From Candidatus Jordarchaeales archaeon (GTDB lineage Archaea; Asgardarchaeota; Jordiarchaeia; Jordiarchaeales; Freyrarchaeaceae), in contig JAWCFL010000004.1 in the NCBI GenBank assembly GCA_038858525.1, positions 30,001 to 62,000 of the forward strand: a stretch of 32,000 nucleotides of DNA, written 5' to 3'. Of the stretch, positions 6,016 to 26,118 are shown piece by piece (position 1 is the stretch's first letter; the number at the start of each line of letters is the position of its first letter). Below the pieces are notes generated by a model. The model searched no databases and was not told the DNA's origin. It worked only from the letters and a program-made list of their open reading frames with translations. The position numbers and the translations under genes are program-made.

Positions 6016-6143
6016 GGGTCTGTGGCCTAGCCAGGATATGCTATAAACGCCTAAAGGCGCCGGCCTCCGGAGGGGTGTCTCGAGGAAAGCCGGAAAGCGA
6101 GGGTTCAAATCCTAAAATGGTGAAACTCCCTCCAGACCCGCCA
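6016..6143 (+). tRNA. tRNA-Arg(CCG) with three introns (21/22: 6039-6054; 37/38: 6071-6087; 59/60: 6110-6126); CCA encoded
   Basis: Spliced 78-nt sequence: GGGTCTG TG GCCT AGCCAGGATA AGGC G CCGGC CT CCG GA GCCGG AAAGC GAGGG TTCAAAT CCCTC CAGACCC G CCA. All four stems pair. Each intron has a BHB or relaxed BHB; 59/60 is perfect (TTCA/TGAA). Confidence 0.93.
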
Positions 6144-8168: not shown

Positions 8169-8337
8169 GGGCCCCTCGCCCAGCTAGGATACTCAAAGCC
8201 TGACAGGGCGCCAACATTTAAGTGGCGCACGCCTGCGGTGGCTTCAGCGCAGAGAGCTGGTGGTCGCAGGGCGGAGGACTTCTCCTCCCGGCTAAGGGTT
8301 CAAATGGGGGTTCCCAGGGCAGATCCCGCGGGGCCCG
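8169..8337 (+). tRNA. tRNA-Arg(GCG) with five introns (20a/21: 8191-8204; 29/30: 8214-8230; 37/38: 8239-8254; 50/51: 8268-8295; 58/59: 8304-8322); CCA not encoded
   Basis: Spliced 75-nt sequence: GGGCCCC TC GCCC AGCTAGGATA GGGC G CCAGC CT GCG GA GCTGG TGGTC GCGGG TTCAAAT CCCGC GGGGCCC G. All stems are fully paired and each junction has a 4-bp BHB central helix. C9 is atypical. Confidence 0.9.
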
Positions 8338-11981: not shown

Positions 11982-12216
11982 AAAACCCACCACTTAGCGC
12001 AGTTAAACAAAAGGAGAACGGGACAGTTCACATGTTTTCGCTCTCCTCCTTGTCTATTAGTTACGTATTCAACGTCTCCCCCCCTAATGTAGAGGGCGGC
12101 AAGTCGGACCTGCACCCTCACTTAGGGAACAGAAGCCATAAAGGCTATACTAGAAAACGTCTAGAGTTCATCTACCTTGAAAACTGCTGACAAAAAGCAA
12201 GGAAAACATGGAATAA

Positions 12217-12354
12217 TGGTGGACCCCGCGGGATTTACTCAACCTTTTTTCTGGGTTTTTGAATTCGCGGCCCTCTTCAGGGCACCCGCGGCCTCCCGGG
12301 TGCGAACCGGGTGCTCATGGCGCCACAGGCTCTACCAGGCTGAGCTAGGGGCCC
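12217..12354 (-). tRNA. tRNA-Ala(CGC) with three introns (22/23: 12331-12316; 53/54: 12284-12264; 58/59: 12258-12235); CCA encoded
   Basis: Spliced 77-nt sequence: GGGCCCC TA GCTC AGCCTGGTA GAGC A CCCGG TT CGC AC CCGGG AGGCC GCGGG TTCAAAT CCCGC GGGGTCC A CCA. It has the G3:U70 Ala identity pair and A73, and a BHB central helix at each junction. Confidence 0.93.
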
Positions 12355-12384: not shown

Positions 12385-12398
12385 TATTTAACTTTATC
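12385..12398 (-). promoter_or_regulatory. BRE/TATA promoter of tRNA-Ala(CGC)
   Basis: Minus strand GATAAAG-TTAAATA, 31-37 nt upstream of G1, consistent with a short 5' leader. Confidence 0.5.
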
Positions 12399-12623
12399 TC
12401 CTCTCTCACTAAATGGGATAATTTATTTGATGACTCTTCTCTTTTGCAGTGATTAATCCTGCTAGTGAAACTCTCTTCGCGCGGCTTCATTGAATAAGCC
12501 TAGAAGAAGAGATTTTTCTTTGTGAGAACGCTTTTGGAAACGTTAAAGTTAAATATTGAGAGTATTCCAAACTACCTCCGTTACTCCAAATGGATAAATT
12601 TTCTAAAAGAGAGGCGACTTGAA

Positions 12624-12887
12624 ATGTCGGATCCCACTATTCTTCATGGCTTGCTCTTGGCTCTTACCATAGTGCTTGCAGTGATCGCCGTTGAAGTTAA
12701 GCGTCTTGACTACGCTGTGATATCTTTCGCTGGCATGTGCATAGTGCTAGGAGTCCTCTTCTACTTGCTATTCGCTCCTTGGGTCGCAGTGCTCCAACTA
12801 GTGATCTTTGCAGGCGCCATAGCCGTCCTTCTCTTAGTGACAATTAACGTCGCCCGAGAACCTGTGGAGCGTGAGGAGGATGAGTGA
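12624..12887 (+). CDS. nuoJ: Complex I-like membrane subunit, NuoJ N-terminal half (MbhD-like)
   Basis: Three TM helices and LFAPWVAVLQLVIFAGAIAVL (NuoJ A..QvlvYaGAi motif). ATG 12624 follows GAGAGG. Confidence 0.8.
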   Translation: MSDPTILHGLLLALTIVLAVIAVEVKRLDYAVISFAGMCIVLGVLFYLLFAPWVAVLQLVIFAGAIAVLLLVTINVAREPVEREEDE

Positions 12888-13197
12888 TATACGAAAAACC
12901 ATTTTGAAGGTTGCTAGGATCCTTTCAGGCATAGTCCTTGCCGGCGCGGTTACACTATTTCTAATTAAAGCCCTATGGCTTACTCCCTTCTCGTATCAGG
13001 TGTTCGCTTACACCGTGGACTTACTTATGCCAAACGTAGACATAACCGAGATTCCGGTAACTCAGATAGGGTTCTACGAAGGAGTCTACATGTGGTCCAT
13101 GAGGCTCATAGATACAGTGTTCCAAGGCGTAGCAATAGTCGCAGCCGCTATAAGTGCAGCTATACTGTTTAGAGTGGAAAAGGAACGGGAGAGGTGA
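12880..13197 (+). CDS. Complex I-like membrane subunit, NuoJ C-terminal half (MbhE-like)
   Basis: Two hydrophobic segments and MW..R.IDTVFQG..I. Overlaps the previous gene, with SD GAGGAGG. Confidence 0.65.
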   Translation: MSDIRKTILKVARILSGIVLAGAVTLFLIKALWLTPFSYQVFAYTVDLLMPNVDITEIPVTQIGFYEGVYMWSMRLIDTVFQGVAIVAAAISAAILFRVEKERER

Positions 13198-13203
13198 AAA
13201 AGA

Positions 13204-13638
13204 ATGGCTATACCTATCTCCCCAGGTTTATACCTTGGGGTTGCAGCCGTGCTGTATGGTATAGGCCTCTATACTGTGGCAACAAAGAGGAACCTGATCA
13301 AGATAGTGATCGGAATAGAAATACTCGTTAACGCAGCCCACATAAACCTCATAGCGCTATCGGCATACAGGTGGATCATACAGTGGACGCAAGGGGTTTA
13401 CGCCCTCCTATATAACTCAGGCTTCACGGATCCTGTATCCCTAACCTTATACGGTGGCTTCCTCATCAACACCTTACAGTACAATCCGTTATTCGTTGAT
13501 CCTCTCGCCCACTCCATAGTTATGACTTCGATAGTGCTGGCAAGCTGTGTGACCGCTGTGGCCTTAGCATTCGTCGTCGCTCTCTACAGGCATTACGGGA
13601 CGTTAGACGTCCAAAAAATGAGAAGACTAAAATGGTGA
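13204..13638 (+). CDS. nuoK: NuoK/MrpC-like subunit with a loop insertion
   Basis: GLYTVATKRNLIKIVIGIEILVNA and A..TAVALAFVVALYRHYGTLDV..MRRLKW. Confidence 0.9.
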   Translation: MAIPISPGLYLGVAAVLYGIGLYTVATKRNLIKIVIGIEILVNAAHINLIALSAYRWIIQWTQGVYALLYNSGFTDPVSLTLYGGFLINTLQYNPLFVDPLAHSIVMTSIVLASCVTAVALAFVVALYRHYGTLDVQKMRRLKW

Positions 13639-13655
13639 ATGGAGGGTTGTGAAAA

Positions 13656-16067
13656 ATGCTGCCCAACGCAGCTTGGTTATGCTGGATAATCCCCATGATC
13701 GGCGCAGCTCTAATACCCCTCTTCGCGAAAATACACCCAAAAGTTAGAGATGTACTAGCAGTCCTCTTCCCAGCGGCGGCAGCGGTCTTCGCCGTCTCTA
13801 TGATCCCCGACATATTGAGCGGCTTCACGATACTTTCACAGCCCGAAATACTGATAGGAGAAAGCCCCATACCCTGGGACATAACACAGACAATAACTAT
13901 TCAGGGAGTAAGCATACCCGTAACTCTACGGTGGATCTCGCTTCTACCCTATGACGCGAAAGTGCTTTGGATACCTTGGCTTCCAGTTCAGCCTCCAATA
14001 GAATTCTGGCAGGCGCCGTATGCCTTCATGATACCTCGCGGCATCTACGCGGGTGTTCTGGTGGACCCACTAAGCGTCTTCATGGCTTGCGTCGTAACCT
14101 GCATAGGCTTCCTCATAATGGTCTTCTCACTGGGATACATGCACGGAGACCCTGACCTCACCCGCTACTGGTTCTTCATGAACTTCTTCATAGGCGGAAT
14201 GACGATGCTCGTGATCGCCGACAACCTCCTGCAGCTCTTCATAGGCTGGGAGATAGTCGGTCTATGCAGCTGGGCGCTGATAGGGTTCTGGCACAAGAAA
14301 GAGGAGCCATGCACAGTGCCGAAAGACACCCCCGAGTACAGGCCAACCGAGGGCGAGTATAACGCCCTTTGCGGCATGAAAGCATTCATAACGACAAAAA
14401 TAGGAGACATAGCATTGCTCATAGCAATAGCGGTAATATTCTTCTTCTCAGGAACATTCAACTTAGTTCAGTTGCAGCAGAACGCCGCCATAAACTTCGC
14501 GGCAGGCAACATCGGCTGGGTCACGGACCTAGCAGTTAGAGGCCTACTACCAACGGTAGCCCTTCTGCTCTTCGGCGGACCAGTAGCCAAGTCAGCTCAG
14601 TTCCCGCTGCACGAATGGTTACCCGAAGCAATGGCTGGGCCAACGACGGTTTCAGCACTCATACACGCCGCCACGATGGTTAAGGCAGGCGTGTATCTTG
14701 TGGCGCGCATGCTCCCCATATTCTACGGCTCCCAGCAAATACTACTAGAAGCAGCTCTTGAGCCTGCCAAGTACTCCTCAACGCTCGTGCTAACATCCGG
14801 GCAGTGGATTTTCCTATACACAGCCACCCAGTACGGCTTAAGCACCTTCTTTAACACCGTGGCGTCCATAGGGGTGTTCACGGCTTTCCTAGCAGCCACA
14901 ATGGGTGTAGTGTCAAGAGAACTCAAAAAAGTTCTCGCTTACTCCACCATCAGTCAGATCGGCTACATGATGCTTGCCCTGGGCGTCGTGGGCACGTCCA
15001 TGATGTCCGTTATAGGTTTCGCCGCAGGAACGTTCCACCTCATGGCCCACGCGATCTTCAAAGCGCTCTTGTTCCTCTGTGCTGGAGCAGTACTTCATGC
15101 CGTTGAAACCAAAGACATGTTCGAGATGGGCGGCCTCAAACAGAAGATGCCTATAACATATGCATGCATGGTCGTAGGCGGCCTCTCACTAGCAGGCTTC
15201 CCCGGCTTTGCAGGCTTCTTCAGCAAGGAAGCAATATTTGGAGCCACGCTCAAAGCGAACCAGCTTGCAATGTACGTGCTAGCAGCAGTGGTAGTGGCGA
15301 TAACAACCTTCTACACGTTCAGAATGATAGGCTTAGTTTTCCACGGGGAGCCAAGCAGCCACGTCAAAAAGATCGAGGAAGAACACGGCCCAGTAAAAGA
15401 GGCGCCGCCAGTCATGTGGGTGCCTCTCGTAATCCTAGCGGCAGCGACGCTGGCGGCAGGGTGGCTTGAACCCCTCTTCAGACAGTTCTTCCTTGGACCA
15501 ATAGGAGTCTACCTGTTCGAGGCAGAATACGTTCACCCAGTACTCTTGGGAGGCCTCTCGTTCTCCGAGTACCCGCACTTCGTCATTAGCCAAGTCCTAA
15601 CTCACGAGCAGGTCGTGCTCCTCGAAGTCTACGAGTACCTGCACTTGACCACGTATAGCGGCTGGTTCTCGGAGCTCGCCGGTGCATGGATGAGCATAGT
15701 TGTATCCCTCGGGTTATTCGCCGTTGGCTTTGTCCCAGCTTGGCATTACTACGTGGCGAGGCGCGGAGACCCGTCTAAGATAACGAGCAACAAAGTTGGC
15801 GGCGCAATCTGGAGGTTCCTATGGAACCGCTGGTACATCAACCAGATATACTACTTAGTCTTCGTCGACGGCTTCCTGAAGCTTGCATCAGCAATGTACA
15901 GCTACGTGGAGAGAGGACTTGACCGCTTAAACTACGTGGCAGCTGCTGTCACGGTCAAATTATCCGATTCGTTCAGGAAGACACAGACAGGCATCGCATA
16001 CGTGAACATAATGTACCTGTTGCTCGGCGTCTTGGTGTTCATGTTCCTGTTATTAGTGTTCTGGTAA
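13656..16067 (+). CDS. nuoL: NuoL-like antiporter subunit (complex I type, with C-terminal lateral helix and last TM)
   Basis: LFIGWEIVGLCSWALIGFW, KSAQFPLHEWLP.AM.GPTTVSALIHAATMVKAG, HAIFKALLFL and C-terminal RWYINQIY...QTG. Confidence 0.95.
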   Translation: MLPNAAWLCWIIPMIGAALIPLFAKIHPKVRDVLAVLFPAAAAVFAVSMIPDILSGFTILSQPEILIGESPIPWDITQTITIQGVSIPVTLRWISLLPYDAKVLWIPWLPVQPPIEFWQAPYAFMIPRGIYAGVLVDPLSVFMACVVTCIGFLIMVFSLGYMHGDPDLTRYWFFMNFFIGGMTMLVIADNLLQLFIGWEIVGLCSWALIGFWHKKEEPCTVPKDTPEYRPTEGEYNALCGMKAFITTKIGDIALLIAIAVIFFFSGTFNLVQLQQNAAINFAAGNIGWVTDLAVRGLLPTVALLLFGGPVAKSAQFPLHEWLPEAMAGPTTVSALIHAATMVKAGVYLVARMLPIFYGSQQILLEAALEPAKYSSTLVLTSGQWIFLYTATQYGLSTFFNTVASIGVFTAFLAATMGVVSRELKKVLAYSTISQIGYMMLALGVVGTSMMSVIGFAAGTFHLMAHAIFKALLFLCAGAVLHAVETKDMFEMGGLKQKMPITYACMVVGGLSLAGFPGFAGFFSKEAIFGATLKANQLAMYVLAAVVVAITTFYTFRMIGLVFHGEPSSHVKKIEEEHGPVKEAPPVMWVPLVILAAATLAAGWLEPLFRQFFLGPIGVYLFEAEYVHPVLLGGLSFSEYPHFVISQVLTHEQVVLLEVYEYLHLTTYSGWFSELAGAWMSIVVSLGLFAVGFVPAWHYYVARRGDPSKITSNKVGGAIWRFLWNRWYINQIYYLVFVDGFLKLASAMYSYVERGLDRLNYVAAAVTVKLSDSFRKTQTGIAYVNIMYLLLGVLVFMFLLLVFW

Positions 16068-16083
16068 AAGGGAGGCGGAGAAA

Positions 16084-17970
16084 ATGATACTTGACGTATT
16101 AGCCGGATACGAACTTGCCGCATCAGTAGCAGTACTGATCGCCCTAAGCCCAATAGTTTACCTGATAGGCAAAAAGTGGGGTAAAGCAGCAGCATGGCTC
16201 TCCGTAGCTACGGCAGCCATTTCAGCCATAATGGTGATACACGTATCCTCCACTATTCTTACCTCGTACAACTTGATGGCGTCCATTTCCTTCGACGTTG
16301 CATCAAAGGCTTACCAGCTAGTAGTGTACATTCCATTCCAGAACTGGGCGGTTAACGTTGACCTCTCAACGTGGCAAGCATCCATAGTTACGAGTACGGT
16401 GCCCTACTATCCAAACCCGTTCGACCGCTCAGTGGTCTACCCTGCCTTCCACCTCTTCCAGTACAGGCTTGTGCTCCGCCCATACTACAACATTATTCCT
16501 CAGCCCGCCTTCAGAGTAGAAATCCCAATAGTGGCGTCAATGAACCCCCTTCTGCTCCTCCCGCTTGACGCAGGACTAGTCGCCGATGGCCTAAGCGCTC
16601 CGGTCGCCATGCTGATATCTGGACTAGGAGCATTAGTTATGTTCCACTGTGCAACACACATTGATGACTTGAAGCAGCCCGGAACATTCTACGCCAGCCT
16701 CCTCCTTTTCATAGGAGGCATGCTTGGCGTCGTCTTCTCTACGAACATCATAGAGTTCTTCGTGTTCTGGGAGCTGATGCTCATACCCACATACATCCTC
16801 GTCGCTTATTATGGATTAACAGAGAAGCGCAGCACGACGGCACTCAAGTACTTCCTGTGGACCACTTTTGGCTCAGCTTTCATGCTGGTCGGCATGCTCA
16901 TGACAGGAATAAACCTCGGAACATTCAACATGCAAGAGATGGGCGTAGTCATAAACGCTTATCAGAACCTCATATACTCAAGCGTTATAGGTAACTTGAT
17001 TCCTTGGCTCGCCTCAACAATCCTGGGTCAGCAGGTTCAGCTGTGGCTCACTCTAGCAATAATGGGCGCAGTGATGGTGCTGCCAGTCTCACTCATACTT
17101 GTGGGCTTCGCTGTTAAGATGGCGATATTCCCGCTACACACGTGGCTTCCAGACACCTACATGGAGGCTCCAATGCCTGTGACCCTTCTCCTAAGCGCAG
17201 CAATGACTAAAACAGCGGCATATGGTATTGCCAGAATAGTCTCCCTCTATTTAGCTCCCTCTGTCTCAATGATGACTGTTGGGCTGGGAATCCTCGCTAT
17301 AATAACAGCGTTCTATGGAGGAATAATGGCATTAACACAGAAGAACTTGAAGGCGATGCTCGCATACTCCTCAATGAGCCAGATGGGCTACATATTCTTC
17401 GGCTACGCCATGAGCACGTTTTTCAGCGTTACAGGTTCCTTCTTCCACATAATAAACCACGGAATATGCATAGCAACCTGGTTCATGATAGCCGGTCTGC
17501 TCCTCAAACAGTTCGGAACCCTTGACTTCGATAAGCTGGGAGGACTCGCAGGCAAGATGCCTCTCACGGCAACGCTCGCCGTGCTCTCCGGTCTCTCCCT
17601 AGCAGGAATACCCCCACTGAGCGGCTTCGCGAGTGAGTGGCTGATTTTCGTTGGAGGCGCTGTGGCCAACCAGTACCTCCTCTTGGGACTCATGGTTCTC
17701 GCCACCGCTGTCACGTTAGCATACTACTTGTGGGCGATACGCCGCATATTCTTTGGACCAATAAAGCCTGGCCTCGAAAACGCTAAAGAGCTACCATTAA
17801 GATACATAGCGCCAGCTATTATACTAGTAGTGTTCACCGTCATACTTGGTATAGCGCCAAACATGGCTACACAGTTCTTTGCCCCCCTCTTTGGCGCCAC
17901 ACCATTCCTACCGACAATTTACGGGTGGGAGCAGATAGCCTACTTGTTAACCGCACTCATGATGATATGA
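16084..17970 (+). CDS. nuoM: NuoM-like antiporter subunit
   Basis: FFVFWELMLIP, VKMAIFPLHTWLPD, TKTAAYG, AYSSMSQMG and GFASEW (conserved Glu). Confidence 0.93.
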   Translation: MILDVLAGYELAASVAVLIALSPIVYLIGKKWGKAAAWLSVATAAISAIMVIHVSSTILTSYNLMASISFDVASKAYQLVVYIPFQNWAVNVDLSTWQASIVTSTVPYYPNPFDRSVVYPAFHLFQYRLVLRPYYNIIPQPAFRVEIPIVASMNPLLLLPLDAGLVADGLSAPVAMLISGLGALVMFHCATHIDDLKQPGTFYASLLLFIGGMLGVVFSTNIIEFFVFWELMLIPTYILVAYYGLTEKRSTTALKYFLWTTFGSAFMLVGMLMTGINLGTFNMQEMGVVINAYQNLIYSSVIGNLIPWLASTILGQQVQLWLTLAIMGAVMVLPVSLILVGFAVKMAIFPLHTWLPDTYMEAPMPVTLLLSAAMTKTAAYGIARIVSLYLAPSVSMMTVGLGILAIITAFYGGIMALTQKNLKAMLAYSSMSQMGYIFFGYAMSTFFSVTGSFFHIINHGICIATWFMIAGLLLKQFGTLDFDKLGGLAGKMPLTATLAVLSGLSLAGIPPLSGFASEWLIFVGGAVANQYLLLGLMVLATAVTLAYYLWAIRRIFFGPIKPGLENAKELPLRYIAPAIILVVFTVILGIAPNMATQFFAPLFGATPFLPTIYGWEQIAYLLTALMMI

Positions 17971-17986
17971 AAGGAGGCATGGTGAA

Positions 17987-19762
17987 ATGTTAAGCGACGT
18001 AACTCTTCTATACCCGATTGTTACCCCAATAGTTTTCGCTATCCTAGTCCTAGGCATTGGTACAATATTCGAGAGAGTTGCAGACGGGAAACTACAACTA
18101 GCCAGAGAAATAACGGCAGTCATAGGGTTCGCCGTAACATCACTCTACGTATTTCTAACTTACTGGCAACTTAGATACCTGCAGATAATATCCGACTGGT
18201 CCCTCGTGACGTTCGGCGTCTTCATACCTGCAACCTTCTACTACGAGTACATGCCTGCAGGATACTGGCTTACCTTCGCGTACCAAGTGCTCGTGAACGG
18301 GCAAAACTGGCTTCTCTACAGGGCGGTGATGCCGCCCACCGGCTCGGTATTCGCTGTAGACTTCCTCAGCATACTGATGGCGGCAGCATTCACGGGGCTC
18401 GGCCTCGTCGTGTGCGTTTACTCAATAAGATACATGGAACACGACACAGGGAAAACGAAGTACTACGCGCTCCTCCTCATACTCGTTGCCGCAATGAACG
18501 GAGTAGCCTTCGCAGGAGACTTGTTCACTCTCTTCGTGTTCTTCGAGATCATGGGCGTCTCAGCTTACGCCCTAGTTGGGTTCAGGAAGGAGCAATGGGA
18601 ACCTGTCGAGGCAGGCTTCAAGTACCTCTTAATGGGCGCAGTCGGTAGTAGCATGGTGCTCTACTCGATATCTCTGATCTATGGGCTAACGGGAACCCTA
18701 AACTTCGCCTACATTGGAACACTGATCAACCTATCGCAAACACTGAATCCATGGGGCTTCCTCATCGGAAGCCAAGTGTTTTACATAATAATTGCGTTGC
18801 TCATTATAGGGTTCGGCATAAAGGCAGCAATAGTCCCGGTACATACATGGCTTCCAGACGCTCACCCAGCCGCACCCAGCGGAATAAGCGCCATGCTTTC
18901 AGGCGTAGTGATAAAGGCAGGCGTCTACTCGATGGCCAGAAGCCTCTTCGTTCTATTCCCCATCACCAGCGCTTGGCCATGGATGGTAAATCTTAACATT
19001 CCACCGTACAATCTCCAGTACATGTTCCCGTCAGGGTTCCCCGGCTACAGTTACCCGTTCAACTGGAACTATGCATTAGCTCTCTTCGGTGTAATAACGT
19101 TAATCGTAGCGAACGTTATGGCACTTCTCCAGCAAGACATCAAGAGACTTCTAGCATACAGCAGCATACTCAACATAGGATTCATAATGCTCGGCTTATC
19201 AGTAGGCACAGCGACCGGGGTTTCCGCAGCATTCTTCCACCTCGTTAACCACGCGATAGCTAAGGGCCTCCTCTTCTTGGGAGCAGGAGTCTACCTCCAC
19301 TCTACGGGTTCAAGAATGATAAGCGACCTTTCAGGAATAGGCCGCAAGACTCCCATAACAAGCATGAGCTTCGCCATAGGGACACTTGCGTTGATGGGTA
19401 TCCCGCCGCTCAACGGCTTCTGGAGCAAAGCATTAATAGTTCTGTCAGCGGTCTGGTATGCCCCCTTCGTGCCGGAAGGATGGGTATGGGTGACGGTAGC
19501 TATCATAACTGTTCTGGCGAGCGCGTTCTCGGCAGCCTTCTATCTTAGGCTCATATACGTCATATGGTTCTCACCGGAATCCGACCGCGTCAAAGCGATA
19601 AACAAGAAGGAGTCCCTAGTTATGGCTTTACCCGTAGCAGTCCTAGCGCTCGCATGCATAATCTTCGGCGTCTATCCAAGCCCAATATACAGCATGGCAA
19701 ACAGAGCAGCAGAAGCCCTTCTCCACTACGCAAACTACTTCGCAGGAATACTAATACTATAA
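17987..19762 (+). CDS. nuoN: NuoN/MrpD-like antiporter subunit
   Basis: LFVFFEIM, EAGFKYL, IKAAIVPVHTWLPDAHPAAP, IKRLLAYSSI and GFWSK (conserved Lys). Confidence 0.88.
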   Translation: MLSDVTLLYPIVTPIVFAILVLGIGTIFERVADGKLQLAREITAVIGFAVTSLYVFLTYWQLRYLQIISDWSLVTFGVFIPATFYYEYMPAGYWLTFAYQVLVNGQNWLLYRAVMPPTGSVFAVDFLSILMAAAFTGLGLVVCVYSIRYMEHDTGKTKYYALLLILVAAMNGVAFAGDLFTLFVFFEIMGVSAYALVGFRKEQWEPVEAGFKYLLMGAVGSSMVLYSISLIYGLTGTLNFAYIGTLINLSQTLNPWGFLIGSQVFYIIIALLIIGFGIKAAIVPVHTWLPDAHPAAPSGISAMLSGVVIKAGVYSMARSLFVLFPITSAWPWMVNLNIPPYNLQYMFPSGFPGYSYPFNWNYALALFGVITLIVANVMALLQQDIKRLLAYSSILNIGFIMLGLSVGTATGVSAAFFHLVNHAIAKGLLFLGAGVYLHSTGSRMISDLSGIGRKTPITSMSFAIGTLALMGIPPLNGFWSKALIVLSAVWYAPFVPEGWVWVTVAIITVLASAFSAAFYLRLIYVIWFSPESDRVKAINKKESLVMALPVAVLALACIIFGVYPSPIYSMANRAAEALLHYANYFAGILIL

Positions 19763-24800: not shown

Positions 24801-26118
24801 GGTGCTGACGTCATTTACGATCACTTACCCCCAAGGCAGAATGTTCTTTGACAGCGCTCACAACTTAATAGACGTCGAGCATATTGAGGAGTCTCTTGAC
24901 AGCATATTCACCGGATACTTCAGCCTCTACCAGACAGCCCGGTCCGGCATGTACGAGCTTGACGAGATACCCTTTCTACGTGAAATCAACGAGACGATCC
25001 TAAGGGTGTACGACGCCCTGATAATATGTGACCCGGAACTACCCTTCAACCAGGCGGAGTTGGAAGCAATAAAGCTCTTCGTGAGGAACGGTGGCAGCCT
25101 CCTCGTAATGGTCGAACCTAAGAACTTCACAGTTATAAATGAACTCTTAGAGCCCTTCGGAATAAAGGCTACTTCAAATGTCACCGGAAACCTGACGCTC
25201 ACCAGCTTTAAGCCTCACCAGGTAACCAGCGGATTATCATCAGTTACTTTTTATTCCCCAGCCATCTTTGAAGTTAACGAATCAAAGGGAGCCTTCGCCT
25301 TAACTGAAGGACCGATTTTCGTTGCGGGCGCACTGTACGGGATGGGCAAGGTTATAGTGTTCGGCGACTCGGATTTCGCCTCCCTCTTTCACGTTGAAGA
25401 GAGCGATAACTCCAAGCTTCTGTATAACGTTTTTGAGTGGCTTTTGGAGAACAAGCTTGATTTGGAAATAGTGATGAGCACGCCTAGGGAGGGAGGAAAA
25501 GTATACCTTGGAGACAGGGTTTACTTCCTGATTCACGTAGCTTCCATTGGGGGGGAAGACGCCCACGAGAACTTGACAATCTTTGCGGTGTTCAACCTTC
25601 CAAATGGGACCTCCATACCCATGTGGTGCTTCCATTATAAGGACGGATACTACACGACGATGCTCTTCACAGAACTTATAGGGCAAAGTGGAAACTACAC
25701 TTTGATATTATGGGCCGACTCTCCTAGTCATACTTCAACATTTGCGACAATTACATTCACAGTGCTCCCTAGCCCCCCAGAGTCGCCTTCCATATTTCAT
25801 TATCCATCCGCAACGCAAGACATTCTGCTTGGCTTCCTCGCCACTTCATCTGTATTAGCGTTAGTTGTCGGAGCTTACTTTGTGAGGAGAAGAAGGTTCC
25901 AGCGGAAAGCCTTCATACCTGAACTTGACCAGGAGCTTGCCTACCACATGAGAACAATGATCAACGAGGTGAGAGCCGTATTCAAAGAGCTTGAAATTAT
26001 GCTTTCAGACGAAAGCCTAGATGACTTCGAAAGAATACGAATAATTCACGAAAAACTTCCCAGACTAAAGCGTACACTCACCAAGCTAAAAATGCTAGCC
26101 GAAATAATAGGCGAATAG
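21817..26118 (+). CDS. Large membrane-anchored S8 (subtilisin)-fold protein with GIFT/GldG-like domain, MBTPS1/S1P-like architecture; catalytically degenerate
   Basis: Signal peptide, prodomain, S8 motifs (GIDSSHPDL, GHGT.VAGI, KPDIVAPG, QGAGLVN), GIFT-like YDALII......AELEAI..FV.NGGSLLV, C-terminal TM plus RRRR, and many N-x-S/T sequons. Confidence 0.85.
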   Translation: MGGSSLSDVKFAKLLSFIMILLIISLIFLSSPSCAYQNASQNDSPEETFNERSALIDPKVIEAIRLGWDPIPVIVVFTVNSEAGCAAVKATSPGTVVEKIYTLIPAALMKIPSNDIFKVAMLPEVRSIWLNSQFKLTSSLGAKGNRGVEVSVNLGVEQIWSEGFNGSGVVIAILGSGIDSSHPDLDDLDDDPSTNDPKVIASVSMVDYDPFTYDFSGHGTYVAGIVAGTGNASNGTYKGVAPGALLMNVKVFDVEGISLYSWILSGVEWSVSHGADIILVPISVPGLPDDPLCLAVEAAIRMGVVVITSAGDGGPAYISIGSPGSALGAITVGAYNHSSGRTCTFSGRGPSLYMWTKPDIVAPGYNIVSCRAHPPDLGFNISIPQFKDGYGTPIDENYTVASTTAAAAAYVAGLAALLLQSSMYASPESVKIALIKTAVDLYESPNIQGAGLVNPYSAYSYLKSKGGTPLNLDKRTYTIGLPPAPLLVNSTDISSYCLVGSCGTFTAMSLSNHTSNFNSSHLLQGMFGVSYGGGDTIWLTTGTVLRELHVSHVNETTGYEKLVSILQVDCLLVVVVFECWSNYNMTHAINAFKVTMKFINIGDEALSDVCLTFFWNPSLFLNESEQPPDEHGFFDDTTGMLEVNDTCNLDVSQSLWLVFKGNLPVVGYDVGERDEVFNGASKGLFSNNSEYTGDLGLAARWPLSQHLESAGSCSFMAALSFGGNRTAAREAVLDAIEAQEQLNIVDLCVVNASIVRLHQLGADYVSGCMVINVGSIAANASVFFFANKSGDGSTIYYAEEFRLEHLQPYVPVKLNVMWRPTSGGIYSAGWAAWELPFLPLEYLLNPGLLANITEVIQQLNLTELYLLDNYVARNVFIGSPSPDQAVFPTRIPCDPFPISFPIDFAYYNLTVISTGTVSNIKVSVEGAASKLTAASKVPAYIDRLGTVEISINTTTPSTLKLEGVQSPLSLGFFNFPNPGEYSGAIKVMLNGAECLVLTSFTITYPQGRMFFDSAHNLIDVEHIEESLDSIFTGYFSLYQTARSGMYELDEIPFLREINETILRVYDALIICDPELPFNQAELEAIKLFVRNGGSLLVMVEPKNFTVINELLEPFGIKATSNVTGNLTLTSFKPHQVTSGLSSVTFYSPAIFEVNESKGAFALTEGPIFVAGALYGMGKVIVFGDSDFASLFHVEESDNSKLLYNVFEWLLENKLDLEIVMSTPREGGKVYLGDRVYFLIHVASIGGEDAHENLTIFAVFNLPNGTSIPMWCFHYKDGYYTTMLFTELIGQSGNYTLILWADSPSHTSTFATITFTVLPSPPESPSIFHYPSATQDILLGFLATSSVLALVVGAYFVRRRRFQRKAFIPELDQELAYHMRTMINEVRAVFKELEIMLSDESLDDFERIRIIHEKLPRLKRTLTKLKMLAEIIGE

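Follow-up and report, generated by a model that had tools for sequence, protein, structure and literature searches.

Gene structure and splicing positions

The window analysed here is a 32,000-nucleotide stretch of a Candidatus Jordarchaeales contig. On its minus strand (12354-12217) lies a 138-nt tRNA-Ala(CGC) gene, which consists of exons of 23, 31, 5 and 18 nt (77 nt) and introns of 16, 21 and 24 nt. Excision from the raw window at 22/23, 53/54 and 58/59 gives a 77-nt tRNA-Ala(CGC) with the alanine identity pair G3:U70 and an encoded CCA. After splicing the molecule forms a cloverleaf with anticodon CGC and discriminator A73, and ARAGORN called the spliced 77-mer tRNA-Ala(cgc). On the raw window ARAGORN made no tRNA call and Rfam returned nothing at the gathering score; this silence reflects the limits of the detectors and was therefore not counted against the gene.

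All parts of the gene are given here by window coordinates and read on the minus strand. Exon 1 (12332-12354, 23 nt) covers positions 1-22; the 22/23 central helix takes its exon half from the TGGT at 12337-12334. Intron 1 at 22/23 (12316-12331, 16 nt) has an HBh'-type motif with a TGGT/GCCA central helix, an inner stem of 3 bp and an outer helix of 1 bp. Exon 2 (12285-12315, 31 nt) covers positions 23-53, carries the anticodon CGC at 12304-12302 and has no intron at 37/38. Intron 2 at 53/54 (12264-12284, 21 nt) is of the HBh'/BHL type, with a CGCG/CGCG central helix, a 5-bp inner stem and no outer helix, and the final bases of this intron are able to complete the intron 3 motif as well. Exon 3 is the micro-exon TTCAA (12259-12263, 5 nt), which corresponds to T-loop positions 54-58. 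Intron 3 at 58/59 (12235-12258, 24 nt) is of the hBHBh' type, pairing ATTC or GTTC with GAGT, and has an inner stem of 4 bp and an outer helix of 2 bp. Exon 4 (12217-12234, 18 nt) covers positions 59-76.

Upstream, a purine-rich BRE followed by TTAAATA (12385-12400, minus strand) was read by eye as a probable archaeal promoter, and similar upstream sequence is present at the syntenic genes of genomes G001 and G003. A sigma-70 promoter scan was set aside as not applicable to archaea. The T-rich 3' trailer (12191-12216, minus strand) is a probable terminator. The gene is the single one of its anticodon found in the genome. At the level of sequence the observation is thus confirmed: this is a genuine tRNA-Ala gene in four pieces, with three short introns and one piece of 5 nt.

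Splice motifs of the three introns

Each junction lies inside a short repeat, and five, two and four registers (21/22-25/26, 53/54-54/55 and 56/57-59/60) give an identical product. Only the registers 22/23, 53/54 and 58/59 have a 4/4 central helix; the others reach at most 2/4 central pairs. Inner stems of introns 1, 2 and 3 are 3, 5 and 4 bp and outer helices 1, 0 and 2 bp. All three introns have a BHB-type motif, with a 4-bp exon-intron central helix and predicted cuts in 3-nt bulges, and each has at least one flanking helix of at least 2 pairs (hBHBh', hBH or HBh'). They are 16-24 nt long, contain no open reading frame and are missing from homologous genes.

The spliced product and the central-helix registers bear out the original prediction of introns at 22/23, 53/54 and 58/59 and of none at 37/38. 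It had also held that 22/23 is ambiguous by sequence alone and fixed by the helix, which agrees with the five registers, one of them with 4/4 pairs; it missed that 58/59 is likewise ambiguous (four registers) and fixed by the helix alone. Its CGCG/CGCG motif without an outer helix at 53/54 stands, but its typing needs amending at 22/23, where there is no real outer helix either (1 bp), so that this motif is likewise HBh'-type. Positions and helices were described correctly; the overlap of the two T-arm motifs, treated below, was not mentioned.

Our own profile parser gave the identical three positions, although its agreement is not independent of the motif because it rewards BHB-like boundaries. 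When the introns were shuffled (20,000 shuffles), a 4/4 helix with an inner stem of at least 3 pairs appeared within ±3 nt in 2.4%, 0.36% and 0.015% of cases. The homologues compared came from seven metagenome contigs and from the family's remaining genomes. Among 7, 10 and 9 distinct versions of the three introns, central-helix bases were constant or, one exception aside, varied almost exclusively among pairing types, and loops and lengths varied (18-24 nt for the T-arm introns); these homologues are related sequences, so the conservation is descriptive and carries no significance test. The exception is the Ala(UGC) gene of a metagenome contig (L071), whose 58/59 intron has 3/4 central pairs in either order, which may reflect natural relaxation of the motif or else an error in sequencing. 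The motifs were absent from the minimum-energy fold of the full precursor, where unconstrained folding gave a non-cloverleaf structure and was uninformative.

Splicing enzymes and genomic context

The host belongs to the class Jordarchaeia (Asgard), and its catalytic EndA subunit is 91% identical to that of a Candidatus Jordarchaeia isolate. Two EndA paralogues are encoded in the genome. The alpha subunit aligned best with Aeropyrum pernix EndA (E 1.6e-48) and has a crenarchaeal-type loop with K46 together with Y129, H137 and K168; the beta paralogue has no catalytic His. A subunit with the catalytic Tyr-His-Lys and the loop lysine, accompanied by a non-catalytic paralogue, is the sequence signature of an (alpha-beta)2 EndA with the L1/CSL loop. 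The encoded splicing endonuclease is, by this signature, an (alpha-beta)2-type enzyme with a broad-specificity loop. The original prediction had called for a broad-specificity endonuclease and had proposed the EndA architecture as a check, and the predicted K46 loop of alpha and the His-less beta supply what it expected. Published work links the extra loop of EndA to the cutting of relaxed motifs and records it in Asgard enzymes (PMC5829648). RtcB is also present in the genome.

The tRNA gene has an aldehyde ferredoxin oxidoreductase gene on one side and a complex-I/Mrp-like cluster on the other; ten neighbouring proteins were scanned, and none points to a mobile element. The complex-I/Mrp-like membrane cluster (12522-19762, plus strand) is divergent from the tRNA gene. 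Within it, a chain-4L-like ORF (13204-13638) encodes 144 aa against a 95-position profile and may hold an insert.

Related genes and the reading of the locus

In G002, a genome of the same genus, the syntenic gene with the same flanking proteins has the D-arm intron only, an uninterrupted T arm and otherwise the same exons. Because this orthologue reads straight through, it confirms the 5-nt exon TTCAA, which the original prediction had placed at 12263-12259. The D-arm intron is missing from Ala(GGC) genes; in the Ala(GGC) gene of the same genome the D arm is uninterrupted and identical to spliced Ala(CGC) over the first 29 nt. A scan of viral contigs for the double-intron T arm gave 0 matches.

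The short repeats at the junctions, which allow several registers for one mature sequence, would also fit removal of the 50-nt T-arm insert as one block with the T loop rebuilt otherwise, or cuts in neighbouring registers. We consider this very improbable: the alternative registers have no more than 2/4 central pairs, the T loop is not completable without TTCAA, and in 12/12 distinct double-intron genes of the family an unchanging TTCAA stands between two hairpins that vary. Slightly less probable still is that the gene is a pseudogene or an assembly artefact in which two near-identical tRNA genes were fused. The assembly is a draft of 63 contigs and an Ala(UGC) gene elsewhere in it differs by one base, but independently assembled genomes, like metagenome contigs, show the same architecture at the syntenic locus, the exons are nearly invariant while the introns have diverged, and no second Ala(CGC) gene turned up in the genome. 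The sequences thus point, with a probability of about 0.9, to a functional single-copy Jordarchaeia tRNA-Ala(CGC) with three BHB-type introns, whose precursor would be cut by the (alpha-beta)2 endonuclease, the extra loop accepting the relaxed motifs, and whose exons would be rejoined by RtcB. According to a 2026 preprint, none of the Asgard intervening sequences newly identified there has been shown to be spliced in the cell.

Overlapping T-arm motifs and proposed order of removal

Two bases, U54 and the final A of intron 2, lie in the bulges of the 53/54 motif and in the helix of the 58/59 motif. Because these bases are shared, the two motifs can never be complete simultaneously, and we infer that the two T-arm introns are removed in separate cut-and-ligate rounds. 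The 5-nt exon would then stay attached at one end, and the D-arm intron would be removed independently of the other two. In Ala(CGC) each T-arm motif has 4/4 pairs whether or not the other intron has already been removed. An obligatory nested order, with a motif existing only after another removal, was found only in the CGC and UGC genes of the sister genus G004 and not here.

We modelled the cost of forming each motif at 65°C, with an energy model that omits tertiary structure, modifications and the enzyme. Removal of 58/59 first costs 4.8 and then 1.4 kcal/mol, and removal of 53/54 first costs 0.8 and then 9.7 kcal/mol; for stand-alone T-loop introns the modelled cost is 0.7-4.5 kcal/mol. 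With a second step of 9.7 kcal/mol outside this range, against 4.8 then 1.4, we lean slightly, on the strength of the model, to removal of the 58/59 intron first. In this case the final bases of intron 2 would be borrowed by intron 3, giving it an A-U pair and an outer helix of 2 bp. In favour of this order, 7/9 intron versions, which are related sequences, carry U at the shared pair.

The opposite order, in which 53/54 is removed and ligated first and the 58/59 helix then forms with G53 (G-U), differs from this in order only and is a somewhat weaker candidate. The 53/54 motif is locally the most stable (-14.5 kcal/mol against +0.1 for 58/59) and the least costly in the full precursor, and in Cyanidioschyzon merolae the order of removal tracked motif energy (PMC3728597). 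A cut at 53/54 would leave the second helix incomplete until ligation and so might protect the 5-nt exon. In the G004 genes the base at the shared pair is C, which pairs only with G53, so a full 4/4 helix there needs 53/54 out first. Against this order in Ala(CGC) is the expensive second step in the model, outside the range of stand-alone introns. Removal of 58/59 first being favoured here, the preferred order seems to differ between genera.

Homogenisation and probable intron loss and gain among alanine isoacceptor genes

The Ala(CGC) and Ala(UGC) genes, at unrelated loci, are 1-3 edits apart within each genome or sample and 11-25 apart between species with all three introns. The dispersed alanine genes are clearly homogenised within genomes, judging by these distances, and we infer gene conversion between Ala(CGC) and Ala(UGC) as the probable route. 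In both T-arm introns the Ala(GGC) gene of the same genome (G000:C1, about 25878-26025; L055) is near-identical to the Ala(CGC) gene, and it has a 33/34 intron in place of 22/23. The Ala(UGC) gene at G000:C3:49444-49582 (L027) is identical to the Ala(CGC) gene except for position 34, introns included.

In G002 (L007, L030, L040) both T-arm introns are exactly missing from Ala(CGC) and Ala(UGC) and kept in Ala(GGC). As the T-arm introns occur in G004, of the sister genus, the simplest reading for G002 is one loss together with homogenisation, the genomes being ordered by flank identity and without a tree. Compared with G000 and G002, and with G003 at its CGC locus, the anticodons in G001 (L005, L028) have changed places between the two syntenic alanine loci: UGC is found at the oxidoreductase/complex-I locus and CGC at the other.

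In the sister family some alanine genes have the 53/54 intron, with 59/60 in place of 58/59. On this distribution the 58/59 intron looks like a later gain. A fuller scenario can be proposed, which we regard as speculative and rather unlikely in its entirety: the 58/59 intron would have been gained inside a T arm already holding 53/54, using the last bases of that intron; the order of removal would be set by one base and flipped between genera; the dispersed alanine genes would exchange sequence; and the loss in G002 would have occurred via a partly spliced RNA template. If true, this would supply a concrete path by which introns spread and are lost, a point left open by the published survey.

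Other interrupted tRNA genes

An insert was found in 19/19 parser-recovered tRNA genes of the genome, about 10 of which have three or more by a rough count; this census is incomplete, covering the 19 genes parsed, with unreliable parses for Tyr, His, Ser(GGA) and Ile. The same window also holds two tRNA-Arg genes. The tRNA-Arg(GCG) gene (8169-8337, plus strand) was parsed with five introns (20b/21, 29/30, 37/38, 50/51 and 58/59), all with 4/4 central helices. The tRNA-Arg(CCG) gene (6016-6140, plus strand) has three inserts (D loop, 37/38 and 59/60); the first of these was put in the wrong place by the parser and, judged by eye, is near 21/22.

Elsewhere, tRNA-Thr(UGU) (G000:C11, minus strand) has introns at 32/33, 37/38 and 59/60 (61 nt), with the anticodon on a 5-nt exon. 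A 1-nt exon parsed in this gene was rejected as an artefact of the 60-nt length limit of the parser, there being really one 61-nt intron. In the tRNA-His(GUG) gene (G000:C39, minus strand), where the parse is unreliable, the anticodon loop carries roughly 39 additional nt, which may represent two tandem or nested introns around an exon of 1-2 nt.

A sister-family Ala(GGC) gene (L015 position 1501, G006:C1:1547141) has four introns (33/34, 37/38, 53/54 and 59/60) and a 4-nt exon, and its 37/38 helix forms only once 33/34 is removed. It is not in the Supplementary Data 4 list of the published complete Freyarchaeia genome, which G006 matches by a tRNA-Val coordinate.

Comparison with known systems

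In three Asgard genomes introns were reported in 92-95% of tRNA genes, over half of them with several (Valentin-Alvarado 2024). By our own reading of Supplementary Data 4 of that study, with intron starts listed before ends, exons of 3-9 nt occur between introns. For Jordiarchaeaceae and Freyrarchaeaceae the 2026 preprint gives 2.0-2.4 inserts per gene, with a maximum of five, and it describes an (alpha-beta)2 enzyme. It thus shows, for the same class, what we see here: non-canonical D-arm and T-arm introns, about two per gene and up to five, and an (alpha-beta)2 EndA. Splicing order, overlapping motifs, alanine genes and gene conversion are undiscussed in the parts searched; the preprint reports little copying between tRNA types, in contrast to the homogenised alanine isoacceptors found here. 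Given about two introns per tRNA gene and up to five in the published clade, three introns and a micro-exon are ordinary here. The rarity implied by the original prediction does not hold, multi-intron tRNAs being the published norm and a five-intron tRNA-Arg(GCG) lying in the same window.

Like tRNA genes of Thermoproteales, for example tRNA-Pro(UGG) of Pyrobaculum islandicum with three introns (Sugahara 2007, 2008; Tocchini-Valentini 2009, as summarised in reviews), the gene combines up to three introns, positions 22/23 and 53/54, both listed there, and relaxed motifs. The reviews also describe ordered removal, including nested cases in which a last motif does not form until other introns are gone. 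Thermoproteales belong to another phylum, however, the cited example includes a 37/38 intron, and in contrast to the nested cases as described in the reviews, here the raw precursor can form either motif, though not both together. The tRNA-Ile(UAU) of C. merolae also has three BHB-type introns removed in order, but it is eukaryotic and its motifs fold independently without overlap (PMC3728597).

The gene is therefore a clean example of an already-known oddity. As a discovery it matters little, the phenotype having been published for the clade; it is useful rather as a substrate for tests, being a 138-nt RNA in which two motifs exclude one another. G004, with the opposite sequence constraint, and G002, without T-arm introns, are natural variants that make the order of removal and the retention of the micro-exon testable. 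The remaining points of interest, both worth testing, are the order of splicing and the way the alanine genes are homogenised, and the latter bears on how introns of this clade spread and vanish.
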